Positions 1 through 34,527 of a DNA stretch of 34,527 bases are shown one piece after another. The notes below the pieces were generated by a model. It did no database searches. It was given only the letters and a program-made list of their open reading frames with translations, and was not told where the DNA came from. This DNA is from a virus (taxonomy: Duplodnaviria > Heunggongvirae > Uroviricota > Caudoviricetes). The position numbers and the translations under genes are program-made. The DNA is taken from the IMG/VR virus record IMGVR_UViG_2667527789_000014. One strand, 5' to 3'. Position 1 is the stretch's first letter; each line of letters begins with the position of its first letter.

Positions 1-933
1 CCCAAAAAGAATTCAATTTCAATTTGTTTTACCGGATTTGACCAGTCTGATAAATCTCGCTTAAGTGCTCTTGCAAAAGAAAATGGTATTGATGTTAAGT
101 CTGATGTTGGAAAAAGTTTGTTTTTCCTTTGTGTAGGAAAGAACAAAGGGTGGCGGAAAGTTCAGAAAGCCAGCGATTATGGCGTAATTATTCTAACAGA
201 AGAACAATTTATCAATTTTATTGATACTGGTGAAATTCCTCTTGAGCAAGACTGCGTGGTTGAGAATGATATCAGTAAATCGCTTGAGAAGGATGTTAAC
301 ACTTACAAGAGTATGATAGATGAGTTCTCGCTTTCTATCCGTACTGTAAGGGAGTTTCGCCGTAGTAATGCGTTGATTGCGGTATTTGTTGATGGTTACG
401 CAGCTGGTTGGCGCTTTGCTGTAAAAGAGTGTTACAAGGATTCTTTGGATATAAAACTTACCCCAGTAAAAACAGAGTTTTTTAATTATGAAATTTGGAC
501 GCAAGGGGATTCCTTTCAGTTTAATCGCGGTGATGTTTTTTATAGTGATCGCCTGGCGTATGATTCTTATTGCGATTTTTTAAAGCTTGATGATGCTGTT
601 GTTCTTCAGGTGAAATATGAGTGCTTTTCTGGTTACGATTCTGTAAGTACTTTTGATGGTGTGATGGATGGTGAGTTTTCTTTTTCTCGTATGGAACCCA
701 GACCTGTCCATAAATTACCTGTGCTGATTGAAACTCAACTGTATGACCCCGGAAAGATTATTGTTGATGTTTTTGTTCCTGATGCTGCGAAAAAACAATT
801 AAAACTTAAAGACACCTTAGAGCTGAAGCAGGATGAATTTGTCTGTTTACTTCAGTCAGGGTGTTGTTGGGTTAAACGAAGGGAAGCAGGAGATAAGAAA
901 AAACCTGAATTTATTAACCTATTCAAAAAATAA
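1..933 (+). CDS. 3' part of a larger ORF whose 5' end lies outside the window; BRCT-like module followed by a ~230 aa domain of unknown function
   Basis: Frame +1 is open from base 1 to the stop at 931-933, so the listed start at 118 is internal. The first ~75 residues (ICFTGF...SRLSALAKENGIDVKSDVGKSLFFLCVGKNKGWRKVQKASDYGVIILTEEQFINFI) resemble a BRCT fold by eye. The remainder matches nothing I recognise. AT-rich relative to the prophage. Confidence 0.5.
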   Translation, partial: PKKNSISICFTGFDQSDKSRLSALAKENGIDVKSDVGKSLFFLCVGKNKGWRKVQKASDYGVIILTEEQFINFIDTGEIPLEQDCVVENDISKSLEKDVNTYKSMIDEFSLSIRTVREFRRSNALIAVFVDGYAAGWRFAVKECYKDSLDIKLTPVKTEFFNYEIWTQGDSFQFNRGDVFYSDRLAYDSYCDFLKLDDAVVLQVKYECFSGYDSVSTFDGVMDGEFSFSRMEPRPVHKLPVLIETQLYDPGKIIVDVFVPDAAKKQLKLKDTLELKQDEFVCLLQSGCCWVKRREAGDKKKPEFINLFKK

Positions 934-939
934 AAATAT

Positions 940-1346
940 AGCCCGCATATCGCGGGCAAATGTCTATGTAATTCAACGGAGAAAGGGTGCCATATCGACC
1001 GAACCCGGCAACCGGATAGCGGGGGCTTTCACCCCCGCTGCGGTTTCTTACGGTTTACACTGCAAGAACGCCGCAAATTCTGACCACATGATGTTAAGTC
1101 TGAACTCACACGGAGAACGGTGTATCATCCAGACGGTCAACAACATGGTTAAGCATAAAATGCTCACGATGATCGTTTTTTGCGGCATAGCGCTTGACTC
1201 CTTTTACAGGGAGGCGCTAACCTTCCACTTGTCACGGTAGGAAGTGTTAGGGCCTCGGGTTAACATTTAAGTTGACTCGGGGCCTTTCCACATCCGGCCT
1301 TCAGGTAATCCTTCCAGCCATCAGCCGAAAGGCACCCGCGTGTAAT
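940..1346. repeat. direct repeat copy 1 (~406 bp) carrying a hok-like toxin locus
   Basis: Near-identical (about 90 percent by eye) to 1663-2068. Both copies begin with the palindrome GCCCGCATAT(C/T)GCGGGC and end at GCACCCGCG(T/C)GTAAT. Confidence 0.85.
1048..1188 (-). CDS. hok: Hok-family type I toxin, HokA-like small membrane peptide (46 aa)
   Basis: Minus-strand translation gives MPQKTIIVSILCLTMLLTVWMIHRSPCEFRLNIMWSEFAAFLQCKP. It shares the MPQK start, hydrophobic helix and C-E-x-R...E-x-AAFL-x-C-K pattern with HokA as I recall it. AAGGAG lies 9 nt upstream. A 20-codon leader ORF ends in the Shine-Dalgarno region (mok-like coupling). A GC hairpin follows the stop. Below the 60 aa cutoff of the ORF track. 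Confidence 0.65.
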   Translation of the reverse strand: MPQKTIIVSILCLTMLLTVWMIHRSPCEFRLNIMWSEFAAFLQCKP

Positions 1347-1451
1347 GTACTGATTTCCCTTTGTGTGCGCAATGCCTGGCGTTGAAGCAGACAACGCTAT
1401 CGCACTGGTGATATTCTTTCGCACAGGCTTACTCTGTCCTGTGTCGGGGCG

Positions 1452-1655
1452 ATGAAAATGATTCTTTCAAGAAAAAAAATTGAAATTGAGGTTGTGCAAA
1501 GTGGAACGGCTGATAATCCTGAGACGGTTACAAAAATAAAGGTTTCACGCCCGGAAGATCTTGAAGCGTGTGGTGTTATCGTGGAAAAAATTTGTGCTAT
1601 TCATGCAAAATCAGTTAATACCACTGCCAGTAACGACCACAATAAATACAACTGA
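1452..1655 (+). CDS. hypothetical small protein (67 aa) between the two hok-like repeats
   Basis: ORF with GGGG upstream and the repeat-borne palindromic hairpin immediately after the stop. No recognisable motif. Coding status uncertain. Confidence 0.3.
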   Translation: MKMILSRKKIEIEVVQSGTADNPETVTKIKVSRPEDLEACGVIVEKICAIHAKSVNTTASNDHNKYN

Positions 1656-1662
1656 ACAAAAA

Positions 1663-2068
1663 AGCCCGCATATTGCGGGCAAATACGTCTGTAATCCAAT
1701 GGAGAAAGGGGTGCCATATCGACCGAACCCGGCAACCGGATAGCGGGGGCTTTCACCCCCGCTGCGGTTTCTTACTGTTTACACTGCAAGAACGCCGCAA
1801 ATTGTGACCACATGATGTTAAGCCTGAACTCACACGGTGACTTGTGTATCATCCAGACAATCATCAAAATAGTTATGCATAAAATGCTCACTATGATCGT
1901 TTTTTGCGGCATAGCGCTTGACTCCTTTTACAGGGAGGCGCTAACCTTCCACTTGCGAGGTAGATGGGTTAGGGCCTCGGGTTAACATTTAAGTTGACTC
2001 GGGGCCTTTCCACATCCGGCCTTCAGGTAATCCTTCCAGCCGTCAGCCGAAAGGCACCCGCGCGTAAT
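1663..2068. repeat. direct repeat copy 2 (~406 bp) carrying a second hok-like toxin locus
   Basis: Aligns base for base with 940-1346 apart from scattered substitutions. Confidence 0.85.
1772..1912 (-). CDS. hok: Hok-family type I toxin paralog (46 aa)
   Basis: Minus-strand translation gives MPQKTIIVSILCITILMIVWMIHKSPCEFRLNIMWSQFAAFLQCKQ, the same architecture as the copy at 1048-1188 with six substitutions. Confidence 0.65.
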   Translation of the reverse strand: MPQKTIIVSILCITILMIVWMIHKSPCEFRLNIMWSQFAAFLQCKQ

Positions 2069-2770
2069 TTACCTTTTACGTCCGTTACGTGCAACGGATG
2101 ACGTGGCTGTTTTTCCTTCCCCTTCGCCATCCTTTTTCGGAGCAGTTGTGCAAAAGTGTGCAAAAGTGATTTTTGTTGCCACTTCCCGCCAGGCCGCGCC
2201 AGTTCTGGCTTTCCTGATTTTTTCGTTTTCGTCGCCGGATCCTTTTTCAGATCTTCGATCGTGACGTAATTTTAAAAATCTCTTGTTATTCAGTGCATTA
2301 AAATTTTTCGGGATCCTCAGAAAGCCGGAGTTTTTGCACACTTTTGCAAAACCTTGCACAAAGTGCAAAACCATTCAGAAGGGAAATCCTCAGTAATGGC
2401 GCGCCCTGGCGGGGTGTTTTGCACCCCTTTCGATTTGCAAAATTTATCGTACACAAATACCGGAGGCGTGTGCGGGGTAGCGCCGATTACGTCACTTTAC
2501 GCGTTACGTCGCCCCCGAAAATTTCCGGCCATTTGCGGCGATTCTGGGGCGCAGAAATCGTTTTCTGATGTCAGGGGATCGAATCGGGCTGGCGGGGTTA
2601 TCTCTTCGTTACGTGGCGTTACGTGACGTTTTACGCGGGGATTACGTGGGGCGTTTCGTCCATCTTTTTTTCTGCTGCGGACGGTTTTTCGTGGTGGGTG
2701 ATGTCCGTTGATGAATATTTTTTATTGTCGGGGGAATAAAAAAGGCCACATTGCGCGGCCTGTTAAAGTG
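2069..2770. promoter_or_regulatory. non-coding repeat-dense region: TTACG(T/C) iteron-like motifs, TGCAAAA repeats, GATC cluster; possible prophage end/arm or origin-like region
   Basis: At least 10 copies of (A/G/T)TTACG(T/C) in both orientations, clustered at 2075-2095, 2485-2510 and 2600-2650. TGCAAAAGTGTGCAAAAG at 2149-2169 recurs inverted at 2332-2352. Five GATC sites fall within 2238-2580. ORFs in the track here look spurious. Confidence 0.4.
2733..2761 (-). terminator. intrinsic terminator at the end of the late (tail) operon
   Basis: Minus strand reads AGGCC-gcgcaatgt-GGCCT followed by TTTTTTATT, directly downstream of the stop at 2776. Confidence 0.5.
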
Positions 2771-2775
2771 AATGA

Positions 2776-4449
2776 TTATTCGATTATTGGTGAATATTTA
2801 TTTTTAAGCTGGCGGCACTCCTGAGCGACCTGGCTGAACTGTGCGGCCTGCGGAGACGTGCCCGTTTTGGGGTGGGTATGTGATGCCGTAATATCGGCCA
2901 GCTCTTCCACCACATCGGCAAGGTCCGTCAGCATGGTCAGTACATTAATGCCCTCGTTTCCCAGCTTCACCGTATCGCCAACCAGCTTCTGCGCCAGCGC
3001 AATACTGTGACGGACGCCCTTAATCTTTTCGGTAAGGCTGCCGCCCACGGTGTCCAGTGTGTCGCCTTCCACGTCGCGCTCACAGGTACCGGCAACCACC
3101 ATCATGTGCCCGCCCGTGCTGATGCTGTAGTTCTCTTCAGTGATATGGGTGACTGCGCCAGCCTGAAGCGTGGATACGCCCAGGACGGTGGTTGTGTCGG
3201 TTGCCTGTATGGTGGTCTCCCGGCTGGTCAGGCTCCGCGTCTCCTCGTCTGCGCTCACCACGCGCTCGCGTGATGTCTCCTGTATCCGCTGGTCTGTCTG
3301 GCGCTCCCAGTCTCCGGCGACCGTCACGCGCTGCGATACGCCGTCGCGCTGTTGCTGCAACTGCTCGCCCGGCTTCACGTCGGGCAGATTGTGGCCCTCT
3401 GCCATTATCTGGCGGATGAAGGGCTTATCCGCCCGGCCTTCCACAAATCCCACTTCCACCAGGGTTCCGGGTGGCGGGAACTGGAACATGCCGGACTCAC
3501 TGCCCGCCATGGGAACGGGGAGGGGAACGGCGTTATAGACGGGCGTATCTGCTGCCGGGTTGCCGTTCTCGTCAAGCAGCTGGAGATTCACCGCGTAGCG
3601 GGGTCTGAACGGGTCGGCAATATTGCCCGCGCTGACGGCTTCGGTCGGTGCCTCAACACGTGCCAGTTTGGGCAGGTGAAGCCCTGATGCCAGCTCAGGG
3701 AAGGCCTTTTCAGCCTGGCGACGGAAAGGGGACTTCTGGAGGGGAGCGCCGGTAGCTTTATTGCGCGGTGTCCACGTGATGGTCATGTTGTCATCTTCCA
3801 GCATGACCATCGTCAGGCGCTGACCGTTCACCTCCACACCCGGTCGCAGCGTCTGAATCATCGGGAGGGTCATACTGTGCCCGCCCGTTGATGCCTGGCT
3901 GAACTCGTGCGGGATGGTGACGGGGCGACCGGAAAACATCCCCTGCGCGGCAGCAGCGGCCATAATGCCGCCGTCCGGTAACGGATGCCAGATGTAATCC
4001 GGTACGGAGAAAATACGCCCCAGACTGGCCAGCAGTTCGTAGCCCGTGCCGCTGTGTGTGAAATGCGGAACGGGTCTGTCAGTGTAAGCCGCGTTGTCCG
4101 GCAGGATGATTTCCAGCCCGCTGGTCTCACTCAGCCACTGTGTGACCGTGCGCATTGTCGGGTGCTGAAATGAACAGGGGAAGGGGTGATCAAGGATCCC
4201 CGCCATTTCACGAATCAGAAGCCGCACCGAGCCGTTTTCAGCGGGCTGGCTGCGTTCAACGTATCCGGTAAACCAGCGCACCAGGTCGTTTCCGTATCCG
4301 ATATCGAGACGAACGGGGCGCCCGGTGTAGTTCTGCTCTGTTCTGGCCGTGATAAATCCGCGTCCGCACGCGTTCAGCTCAAGCATGACGGAACAACTGA
4401 CCAGCTGAATGGTGTCGTTACCCAGTAACAGACGTTTAGTGGGGTTCAT
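2776..4449 (-). CDS. baseplate hub/central spike protein, fused gpD-like plus gpV-like (VgrG-like architecture)
   Basis: 557 aa. The segment PPGTLVEVGFVEGRADKPFIRQIMAEG matches the gpV/gp5 OB-fold signature by eye, followed by a Thr/Val-rich repetitive C-terminal region. Last gene of the tail operon. Confidence 0.5.
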   Translation of the reverse strand: MNPTKRLLLGNDTIQLVSCSVMLELNACGRGFITARTEQNYTGRPVRLDIGYGNDLVRWFTGYVERSQPAENGSVRLLIREMAGILDHPFPCSFQHPTMRTVTQWLSETSGLEIILPDNAAYTDRPVPHFTHSGTGYELLASLGRIFSVPDYIWHPLPDGGIMAAAAAQGMFSGRPVTIPHEFSQASTGGHSMTLPMIQTLRPGVEVNGQRLTMVMLEDDNMTITWTPRNKATGAPLQKSPFRRQAEKAFPELASGLHLPKLARVEAPTEAVSAGNIADPFRPRYAVNLQLLDENGNPAADTPVYNAVPLPVPMAGSESGMFQFPPPGTLVEVGFVEGRADKPFIRQIMAEGHNLPDVKPGEQLQQQRDGVSQRVTVAGDWERQTDQRIQETSRERVVSADEETRSLTSRETTIQATDTTTVLGVSTLQAGAVTHITEENYSISTGGHMMVVAGTCERDVEGDTLDTVGGSLTEKIKGVRHSIALAQKLVGDTVKLGNEGINVLTMLTDLADVVEELADITASHTHPKTGTSPQAAQFSQVAQECRQLKNKYSPIIE

Positions 4450-4451
4450 GG

Positions 4452-4994
4452 TTACTCCAGCGCATCATTGACGGGTTTGAGGACCTTTTCTTCGAACCAG
4501 GTCATTTTCTCCGGTGTTTCGTCGGCCACGGTTTTGCCTTTTGCGCCGGGCGTCTGCGGTGTCTGTTTACGGCTGCTGGCGGGTGCGGCGCGTGCCTGGC
4601 GTTTTTCCGGTACGCTTCGTCTTTCGCGTAATGTGAAGCTGACCTGCCAGGCGAGGCGGTCGGTCTGCTGCTGTGCGTCTATCTGCCCGGAAAATGTCCC
4701 TTCACGAAAGTTAATGGCGGCAGCGGTGGCGTTTGCGATACGGTAAACTTTCAGGGCACCGTCCCCGGTGGTGGCAGAGGCCAGCTGGAAAATGCGCTGA
4801 AGGGCCCGCTCATTGTCAAAGGTGATCATCCCGGTTACGCGAAGCTCTTTGGCCTTGATGCCCTGCTCGGCGTTCGCGGTGCTCGATGTCTGACCGGACT
4901 GGTCCTTTTCCTGGAACTGCATCGAGGGCGAAATCACCATGTTCTGCATGAAAATACCCTCACCATCAAGGGCGAGTAGTGCGGTCTGGCTCAT
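4452..4994 (-). CDS. hypothetical tail/baseplate-associated protein
   Basis: 180 aa ORF tightly packed between neighbours. Start may be an internal Met at 4949 or 4940, since 4994 overlaps the upstream gene by 29 nt. No motif recognised. Confidence 0.35.
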   Translation of the reverse strand: MSQTALLALDGEGIFMQNMVISPSMQFQEKDQSGQTSSTANAEQGIKAKELRVTGMITFDNERALQRIFQLASATTGDGALKVYRIANATAAAINFREGTFSGQIDAQQQTDRLAWQVSFTLRERRSVPEKRQARAAPASSRKQTPQTPGAKGKTVADETPEKMTWFEEKVLKPVNDALE

Positions 4995-5691
4995 GGATCA
5001 TTTTCCCCAGTTCGGTTAATGAGTCTGCCGCCAGGAGTGCGGCCACAGTATGTACAGCGGTCGGTGCCGGGATATCCTTCACCATGGCCGCCGCTGCGGC
5101 GCGGTGATACCCCCGGTACTGAAATACCCAGGCCTGCGCCTTCTGTTCTGCCAGTGTTCTGATCCCCTCTTCCAGTCCGGCAAGTGCGCCAGCCCGTCTG
5201 CTGATAAAGCGGCTTATCTGGCGGCGAAGCCCTGCGGCATCCGGGCGTTGTGCTGCCAGCTGCCTGGCCTGTGCTGCACGGGCGGCGCTGACTGCGTTGC
5301 GCATTGTGGCAACGGAAAAATGAACAGGTGCGGGCAGGGTGTCGGTGGTGATCGGGATTTGCATTTTGTCAGTGCTCAGACTGGCGGCAGCCTGCGCCAT
5401 GCGCTGTGCCTGCGTGAATACCGGCACGGGCAGAACGGCGGTCAGTGCCGCCATTGACTGTATAAAAAGATCGTGGGTGTTTTCGGCAATCATGATAATG
5501 GTCACGTCGCCGGATGCACGGCTTCCGGCCATTTTCCCGGCCAGCCAGTTTATGGCGTTCGGAGGGCTTAAATATACCCCCGATTCTTCATATCGTCCCA
5601 GCCCGTAAGTCCACGGTGTGACGGGGATGACGGAACAGCTCAGCGGGGGCATGTCAGCGCTGACGCTGATTGTTTTTCTTGTCCACGTCAT
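4966..5691 (-). CDS. hypothetical tail-associated protein
   Basis: 241 aa ORF starting 12 nt after the tail fibre assembly gene. GC-rich like the structural module. No motif recognised. Confidence 0.35.
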   Translation of the reverse strand: MTWTRKTISVSADMPPLSCSVIPVTPWTYGLGRYEESGVYLSPPNAINWLAGKMAGSRASGDVTIIMIAENTHDLFIQSMAALTAVLPVPVFTQAQRMAQAAASLSTDKMQIPITTDTLPAPVHFSVATMRNAVSAARAAQARQLAAQRPDAAGLRRQISRFISRRAGALAGLEEGIRTLAEQKAQAWVFQYRGYHRAAAAAMVKDIPAPTAVHTVAALLAADSLTELGKMIHEPDRTTRP

Positions 5692-34075: not shown

Positions 34076-34101
34076 TGCCACCTTCGGGTGGCGTTGTTTT
34101 T
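34076..34101 (+). terminator. intrinsic terminator downstream of the integrase gene
   Basis: GCCACC-ttcg-GGTGGC followed by GTTGTTTTTT. A second 12 bp stem (AAGGGGGATAGCG...CGCTACCCCCTT) lies at 34044-34073. Confidence 0.5.
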
Positions 34102-34244
34102 TGCGAGACGACTCGCATTCTGTTTTGTAATTCCCTCACCCTTTGCTTTTCTCTCCGAGCCGCTTTCCATATCTGTTAACGCATAAAAAACTCTGCTGGC
34201 GTTCACAAATGCGCAGGGGTAAAACGTTTCCTGTAGCACCGTGA

Positions 34245-34275: not shown

Positions 34276-34527
34276 ATGCGTATTACCATAAAAAGATGGG
34301 GGAACAGTGCAGGTATGGTCATTCCCAATATCGTAATGAAAGAACTTAACTTACAGCCGGGGCAGAGCGTGGAGGCGCAAGTGAGCAACAATCAACTGAT
34401 TCTGACACCCATCTCCAGGCGCTACTCGCTTGATGAACTGCTGGCACAGTGTGACATGAACGCCGCGGAACTTAGCGAGCAGGATGTCTGGGGTAAATCC
34501 ACCCCTGCGGGTGACGAAATATGGTAA
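34276..34527 (+). CDS. chpS: MazE/ChpS-family antitoxin (83 aa)
   Basis: MRITIKRWGNSAGMVIPNIVMKELNLQPG... has the AbrB/MazE fold signature and matches E. coli ChpS as I recall it. AAGGAGG 5 nt upstream. The cognate toxin gene would lie beyond the window end. Confidence 0.75.
   Translation: MRITIKRWGNSAGMVIPNIVMKELNLQPGQSVEAQVSNNQLILTPISRRYSLDELLAQCDMNAAELSEQDVWGKSTPAGDEIW

Follow-up and report, generated by a model that had tools for sequence, protein, structure and literature searches.

A three-domain WYL-like–BRCT cargo gene with a variable poly-C tract in a P2-like Escherichia coli prophage

RESULTS

The gene at the window edge and its prophage

The DNA analysed in the present study (hereafter the window) is a stretch of 34527 nt of a tailed-phage record, and its first feature is a reading frame on the plus strand at 1–933, which is open from base 1 and terminates with a stop codon at 931–933 after 310 translated codons. 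The preliminary description had taken this for the 3′ part of a larger gene, and megablast recovered the rest in NZ_CP148318.1. The full gene there is 99% identical and has 399 codons (L001 14734–15933; WP_231238016.1, annotated as a 'BRCT domain-containing protein'), and the 89 codons missing from the window lie upstream of it. The exact 310-residue product of the window (P0168) is recorded as a 'partial' E. coli protein on 46 contigs, and a minus-strand ORF at 193–504 lies wholly within the conserved coding frame. Window 1–933 is the 3′ part of a real and conserved gene. It was also described as AT-rich, and the GC content of window 1–1000 is indeed 0.377 compared with 0.55–0.63 (approximately 0.58) for the prophage body. 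A further possibility raised in that description was a housekeeping enzyme conserved in synteny across the species; megablast found carriers of the gene in two out of 5426 complete E. coli genomes.

The limits of the prophage were defined by alignment with the empty site of E. coli K-12, in which the gene order is tamB, ytfP, chpS, chpB and ppa, with the insertion point between ytfP and chpS. After ytfP, the K-12 sequence matches the ytfP-side junction up to a 17 bp core and, from the core on, the integrase-side junction. The right att core, GCCACCTTC[G/C]GGTGGCG, is located at 34077–34093 on the plus strand, as given by unique matches in the empty-site alignment, and the left att core lies outside the window, at L001 14580–14596, 137 bp upstream of the gene's ATG. 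Because the core is duplicated, everything between its two copies is an integrated element. A search for exact k-mer repeats (k≥12) missed the core owing to one mismatch, and the repeat was found via the empty K-12 site. The order of the element is the WYL-BRCT gene, two hok/gef loci, tail, lysis, head, ogr, a replication gene, cox, C and int, which puts the cargo gene and int at opposite ends of the prophage; circularization would bring C, int, attP and the gene together in this order on one strand. The gene had been placed beside a prophage end, but both it and the two hok loci are inside the att-bounded P2-like prophage. By location and composition it is prophage cargo (a 'moron').

The duplicated toxin loci noted next to the gene were borne out as two Hok/Gef genes downstream on the minus strand, at 1048–1188 and approximately 1772–1912. 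They belong to a hok/gef-type unit of approximately 420 nt that is tandemly duplicated (932–1350 and 1655–2072; 82–95% identity, spacing approximately 723 nt); Rfam detected no RNA family in window 1–2800. Right after the stop codon of the cargo gene, a GC-rich hairpin (GCCCGCATATCGCGGGC) at 941–957 (L001 15941–15957) was picked up by the terminator scan and as repeat family D3. This hairpin has a terminator score on the minus strand only and is part of the repeated hok unit.

The att core is the hairpin of the ytfP terminator. In the junction on the ytfP side, CGAAAATTG replaces the T-run that comes after the hairpin in K-12 (L001 14580–14610 compared with K-12 L009 3004–3035); the T-run now lies after int (window 34077–34110). 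The terminator is therefore probably weakened, and read-through into the cargo gene is possible in a lysogen. Upstream of the gene, no consensus σ70 promoter was found, and expression in the lysogen is thus assumed.

Several other features were seen in and around the prophage. Window 34277–34527 ends in chpS, the antitoxin gene of chpSB, and the prophage here is located between ytfP and chpSB; in NZ_CP148318.1, ppa is the next gene after the prophage integrase. The hok loci are separated from the tail-fibre assembly gene by three minus-strand genes at 2776–5691, which encode proteins of 557, 180 and 241 residues. Related loci contain an HP1_ORF34-like relative of one of the three, and the 557-residue protein recurs in Pseudomonas-type P2-like contigs (L033).

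A BRCT domain with a putative phosphate pocket

The BRCT domain spans residues ~92–168 of the full-length protein (window 7–237, plus strand) and was identified by Pfam, profile matches in the PDB and Foldseek. The match to Pfam PF00533 (35.4 bits, with a gathering score of 21.3) covers residues 92–161 (window nt ~7–220), and the profile matches among PDB sequences included the BRCT domains of RFC1 (7e-6) and LigA (1e-4). For the fold, the AlphaFold model of P0002, a 58%-identical homologue, stands in for the full-length E. coli protein. Residues 97–167 of this model are arranged in the order β-α-β-β-α-β-α, and the top 45 Foldseek matches in the PDB were nearly all BRCT domains. The BRCT resemblance proposed in the preliminary description, which it would have given up had profile searches failed, thus passed the Pfam cut-off, the PDB profiles and the fold comparison. 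Its accompanying remark that BRCT is rare in bacteria outside LigA did not hold, as WYL-BRCT fusions were already listed in 2014 (PMC4012209) and are common in P2-like phages.

Residue-level alignment placed Thr100, Gly101, Lys107 and Lys142 on Thr415, Gly416, Arg423 and Lys458 of RFC1. The TG...K/R...K residues that form the phosphate pocket in BRCTs of the RFC1/LigA type are kept at these four positions: in the family alignment, Gly101 and Lys142 are invariant, Thr100 is at least 90% conserved and residue 107 is always lysine or arginine. As judged by alignment, the protein carries the putative phosphate-pocket residues of the RFC1/LigA class. In RFC1 the four residues reportedly bind the 5′-phosphate of double-stranded DNA ends, a finding ascribed to Kobayashi and colleagues (2006, 2010).

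Might the protein then be a DNA ligase or another housekeeping DNA-repair enzyme? The name is not without precedent, since phrog_2561 and some GenBank records label short WYL-BRCT relatives 'DNA ligase', and NCBIfam LigA models give weak matches to the present protein. These models matched only at their BRCT end, with 30.3 bits compared with a cut-off of 444, and Pfam found no adenylation (KxDG), OB, zinc-finger or HhH region in the 399 residues. A match confined to the BRCT end and far below threshold means that the protein is not a ligase, and the ligase reading is refuted by domain content. The presence of the gene in so few complete E. coli genomes, and in a prophage, also argues against a housekeeping enzyme, an explanation to which we attach practically no credence. 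The protein is accessory, neither a ligase nor a housekeeping enzyme. As to the label itself, Escherichia phage 500465-1 gp44 is an example of phrog_2561 mislabelled as a 'DNA ligase', and NC_049342.1, NC_028898.1, NC_008201.1 and other records likewise carry short WYL-BRCT proteins under this name in which only the BRCT end of LigA is present. The 'DNA ligase' label is very likely an annotation error spread via phrog_2561 of PHROG.

The BRCT part was also matched by the PADLOC defence candidate PDC-S48 (2e-7), at profile positions 315–406 of 411. Pfam found no RNase_T/DEDDh exonuclease in the 399-residue protein, which accordingly has a different architecture from PDC-S48. In the literature searched there was essentially no described role of BRCT in anti-phage defence, and nothing relevant on PDC-S48.

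The N-terminal barrel, the acidic helix and the C-terminal domain

The N-terminal part outside the window had been thought able to carry an enzymatic domain. It has only 89 residues, of which the first ~75 are predicted to form a WYL-like five-stranded β-barrel (strands at residues 13–61 in the AlphaFold model of P0002). The E. coli sequence scored 13.6 bits against Pfam WYL (PF13280), below the cut-off of 21.8, although eight out of 16 family members matched it (best 2.5e-6); hence we call this part WYL-like. The PADLOC WYL E-value for the E. coli protein was 0.027, and Foldseek gave a weak match of the P0002 model to PafBC (31% identity over 91 columns, E = 1.6e-2). In the predicted structure, the N-terminal part has the Sm-like five-stranded barrel of WYL domains. 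The WYL domains of DriD and PafBC bind single-stranded DNA, which both regulators sense as a damage signal. No HTH or other sequence-specific DNA-binding module was found in the protein.

Downstream of the BRCT domain is an acidic linker (residues ~170–200, window 238–330, plus strand; pI 4.1), predicted as one long helix (178–202 in the AlphaFold model of P0002 and 6–28 in that of the C-terminal region of the window). It is followed by a β-rich C-terminal domain of ~200 residues (window 331–930, plus strand) that belongs to an undescribed family. The ~230 residues after BRCT (window nt 241–930) had been put forward as a domain that could not be assigned, and this proved correct: they match no Pfam, NCBIfam or PADLOC family, and a profile of the C-terminal domain returned only noise from PDB and NCBIfam sequences.

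Conserved motifs of the domain are R..LIA.F.DGYA.GW.FA, LDIK.T, WTQG..F.F..GD and LLQ.G. In an alignment of 155 sequences, the most conserved polar residues were Arg210, Asp239, Thr256 and Gln257, which are ringed by aromatic residues; this combination offers no obvious catalytic set and does not look like the site of a hydrolase. With a pI of ~6 the domain is not basic, and it is therefore probably not a general DNA binder. From these sequence features, a role in binding or switching is more likely than an enzymatic one. The protein has no recognizable nuclease, NADase, kinase or membrane segment that could serve as an effector.

The family is large. Among 1.84 billion cluster representatives, the profile of the C-terminal domain matched 772 clusters at E≤1e-3 and 401 at E≤1e-10, mostly stand-alone proteins of 150–240 residues, with fusions elsewhere to TerB-like plus BRCT domains, to WYL or to SWIM. 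This third domain is new, being a large family with neither annotation nor fold relatives.

A poly-C tract of variable length

Between the segments that code for the WYL-like and BRCT modules, the gene contains a poly-C tract, located 17 nt upstream of the window (L001 14977–14991). Its length differs between copies, and with it the reading frame, the lengths coming from consensus assemblies to which homopolymer sequencing error could contribute. The WYL part is in frame with 15 C (399 residues) and 12 C (398 residues), both read from DNA copies, and with 9 C (397 residues), inferred from protein variants. It is out of frame with 10 C (328 residues), as in three IMG/VR contigs and in the protein variant P0167 on 81 contigs, and with 13 C (329 residues), again inferred from protein variants. 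The 10 C allele, with its 81 contigs, is the commonest seen. Outside the tract the ORF is intact and near-identical in all of the alleles that were read, and homologues in other genera, which have no poly-C tract, are intact as well. A homopolymer that lies within the frame, varies in length and shifts the frame is a sequence signature of a candidate contingency locus. This tract of variable length in the E. coli allele is new. In E. coli phase variation, homopolymers are far less common than invertible elements or Dam-dependent switches.

The same tract accounts for the position of the window edge. All eight of the contigs examined (L050–L057), which come from independent draft assemblies, stop at the same base, 13 nt past the poly-C tract and 2 nt short of the window. 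Since drafts break at one base, the edge is a systematic assembly break and not an arbitrary cut, and the tract explains why the gene is truncated in many draft assemblies, as it is in the window. Breaks of this kind would be compatible with switching.

The alternative is that the gene is a decaying remnant in the window strain, in which the poly-C differences are fixed frameshifts or sequencing errors and no three-domain product is made. The most frequent allele, 10 C, splits the ORF (on the 81 contigs and in the three IMG/VR copies), such homopolymers are error-prone in sequencing, assemblies break at them, and the tract of the window strain itself is not visible. We nevertheless consider decay improbable, because no other disabling mutation occurs in the alleles read, in-frame alleles exist at three lengths (9, 12 and 15 C), full-length conservation at 37–58% identity shows clear purifying selection across genera, and the tract-less homologues are intact.

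Homologues and their gene neighbourhoods

A word-indexed search of 5.8 billion proteins found full-length homologues (~400 residues) in 17 clusters at the identities just given, with sources in E. coli, Salmonella, Enterobacter, Pectobacterium, Yersinia, Aeromonas and unnamed metagenomes. The three-domain form is rare elsewhere: there was no full-length match in 50697 phage records, and it occurred in only three out of 185579 species representatives. P2-like phages of several genera commonly encode short WYL-BRCT proteins that lack the C-terminal domain.

An E. coli allele with 58% identity is found at the same site, in the order ytfP, gene and hok, followed by P2-like prophages with two different tail modules. 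In 186/P2-like prophages of Pectobacterium, Aeromonas and Yersinia, the gene is located between the immunity repressor and the integrase, on the strand of the repressor. The order is cI, orf, gene and int in Pectobacterium, and repressor, gene and int in Yersinia, where the stop codon of the gene overlaps the start of int. The position between repressor and integrase was likewise found in IMG/VR contigs including L033, and Pseudoalteromonas phage PY3 has the order int, gene and LexA-like repressor. Beyond the replication gene, the Yersinia P2-like prophage (L011 and L012, 1–1590) contains a reverse-transcriptase plus trypsin-like protease gene, which indicates a second cargo slot with a retron- or DRT-like element.

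A wider set of IMG/VR loci was retrieved with a degenerate DNA pattern for the motif WTQG..F.F..G; this yielded 59 loci, 55 of which encode the domain. Of three scans with single proteins, two gave no relatives and the third only contigs already collected. A tyrosine integrase was just downstream in 17 of the approximately 21 three-domain loci that had enough flank. The 31 loci with shorter proteins had a SWIM zinc finger fused or next door in 15 cases, a repressor alongside in ten, an integrase nearby in eight and an adjacent DEDDh exonuclease-BRCT gene in five, and this adjacent gene matched the PADLOC candidate PDC-S48 (1.8e-24). For stand-alone homologues, the contigs were mostly too short for gene context. 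In L087/L040, L115, L083 and L086, an S24-type repressor, a DEDDh exonuclease-BRCT protein (PDC-S48-like), a C-domain protein, a small SWIM zinc-finger protein and an integrase follow one another in this order, a recurrent prophage module in which the fused E. coli protein seems to be split over several genes. Across the survey of lysogeny-module neighbours, repressor and integrase recur in many P2/186-like prophages. What is new is that the C-terminal domain is consistently associated with partners bearing SWIM or BRCT domains next to prophage repressors and integrases.

Such a position invites the explanation that the protein works for its own phage, in lysogeny or DNA transactions, as an accessory factor in integration or excision or as a DNA-damage sensor that tunes the repressor switch or induction. 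The gene is invariably near the integrase, attP and the immunity repressor; in Yersinia it overlaps the start of int, and in the circular E. coli phage it would follow C, int and attP on one strand. PafBC and DriD are moreover established sensors of single-stranded DNA damage, and the weak Foldseek match is to PafBC. Most P2-like phages, however, do not have the gene, which therefore cannot be a core component of integration or of the switch, and the protein contains no HTH or sequence-specific DNA-binding module. The stand-alone domain also accompanies LexA-like self-cleaving repressors, for which an additional damage sensor would be superfluous. We regard a role in the lysogeny of the carrier phage as unlikely, although it deserves serious attention.

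A further explanation is counter-defence or end protection, in which the protein would cap the 5′-phosphorylated cohesive ends or nicks of the phage, or compete with LigA, RecBCD or exonucleases. This would suit a BRCT domain that most resembles the nick- and end-binding BRCTs of LigA and RFC1, and a family confined to phages and prophages. End protection would, however, require packaging or early expression, whereas the gene is in a lysogeny operon or at an att end, far from the early lytic genes, and phase-variable or frameshifted alleles dominate. Protection of the phage's own ends thus appears distinctly improbable.

DISCUSSION

A possible exclusion protein

The reading that we favour, though we stop a little short of calling it probable, is that the gene encodes a lysogen-expressed exclusion or defence protein that senses DNA ends or single-stranded DNA and is switched on and off by the poly-C tract. 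The protein would be made in lysogens, where the BRCT pocket may recognize nicks or DNA ends with a 5′-phosphate, and the WYL-like barrel a nucleotide or single-stranded nucleic acid. Such structures typically arise when foreign phage DNA is injected or replicates. The output would come from the C-terminal domain, which might obstruct the DNA or else recruit or inhibit a partner, and superinfecting phages would be excluded. In the manner of a contingency locus, changes in the poly-C tract would turn production of the full-length form on (9, 12 and 15 C) or off (10 and 13 C). An on/off tract fits a costly function. In other temperate phages, genes in such a position are typically exclusion or defence genes, for example λ rexAB and BTP1 bstA, and the PDC-S48-like neighbour of the stand-alone domain points to a defence candidate.

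Several points weigh against exclusion. The protein has no recognizable effector, the conserved residues of its C-terminal domain form no obvious catalytic set, and this domain is not basic. No consensus promoter was found upstream, and the literature searched does not link BRCT with anti-phage defence. The predominance of the 10 C allele could equally mean decay, and the sole PADLOC match of the protein is to the BRCT part of PDC-S48, itself an unvalidated candidate.

The exclusion reading can be extended to the whole family: the C-terminal domain with SWIM proteins and a BRCT partner, either a DEDDh exonuclease-BRCT protein or WYL-BRCT fused as in E. coli, may form a hitherto undescribed immunity module that senses DNA ends and is encoded in the repressor–integrase region of temperate phages, with the E. 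coli protein as its single-chain and phase-variable form. This extension is tentative, and we regard it as somewhat unlikely in its full breadth.

If exclusion is the function, prophages would encode an immunity or exclusion module that combines BRCT and WYL sensors with a new fold, and a family of at least 772 sequence clusters left blank in databases would gain a testable function. The name 'DNA ligase' given to related phage proteins would be put right as well, and the poly-C tract would exemplify homopolymer-based phase variation in an E. coli prophage gene.

Comparison with known systems

Temperate-phage accessory genes with sensor domains are already known, as are WYL-BRCT fusions. The nearest relatives in architecture are the short WYL-BRCT proteins of phrog_2561 (~160–170 residues), which have the same first two modules (1.2e-37 over residues 12–169, 35% identity) and occupy the same slot at the att/ogr end of P2-like prophages as the E. 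coli gene. They differ in lacking the ~230-residue C-terminal region, and they have no described function.

The BRCT domains of LigA and RFC1 are the closest solved relatives by both sequence and fold, with the TG, K/R and K of the phosphate pocket conserved. Unlike in LigA and RFC1, the BRCT domain here is not attached to a ligase or an AAA+ clamp-loader core, and its DNA binding is putative. The small N-terminal Sm-like barrel, as predicted, is shared with the WYL-domain sensors PafBC, DriD, BrxR/CapW and Cas13d WYL1. WYL sensors of the PafBC/DriD type have a wHTH that is absent from the E. coli protein, which is thus not a transcription factor of that type.

PDC-S48 is a DEDDh exonuclease-BRCT protein that has the BRCT domain in common with the E. 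coli protein, and genes of this kind adjoin stand-alone C-domains in prophage lysogeny modules. Its exonuclease domain is absent from the E. coli protein, and PDC-S48 is a computational candidate only. Finally, although λ rexAB, BTP1 bstA and P2 old/tin/fun have no sequence or fold kinship to the E. coli protein, established knowledge of these genes suggests an analogy of position and presumed expression, as they are likewise accessory, lie beside the repressor, the integrase or att, and have an atypical GC content.
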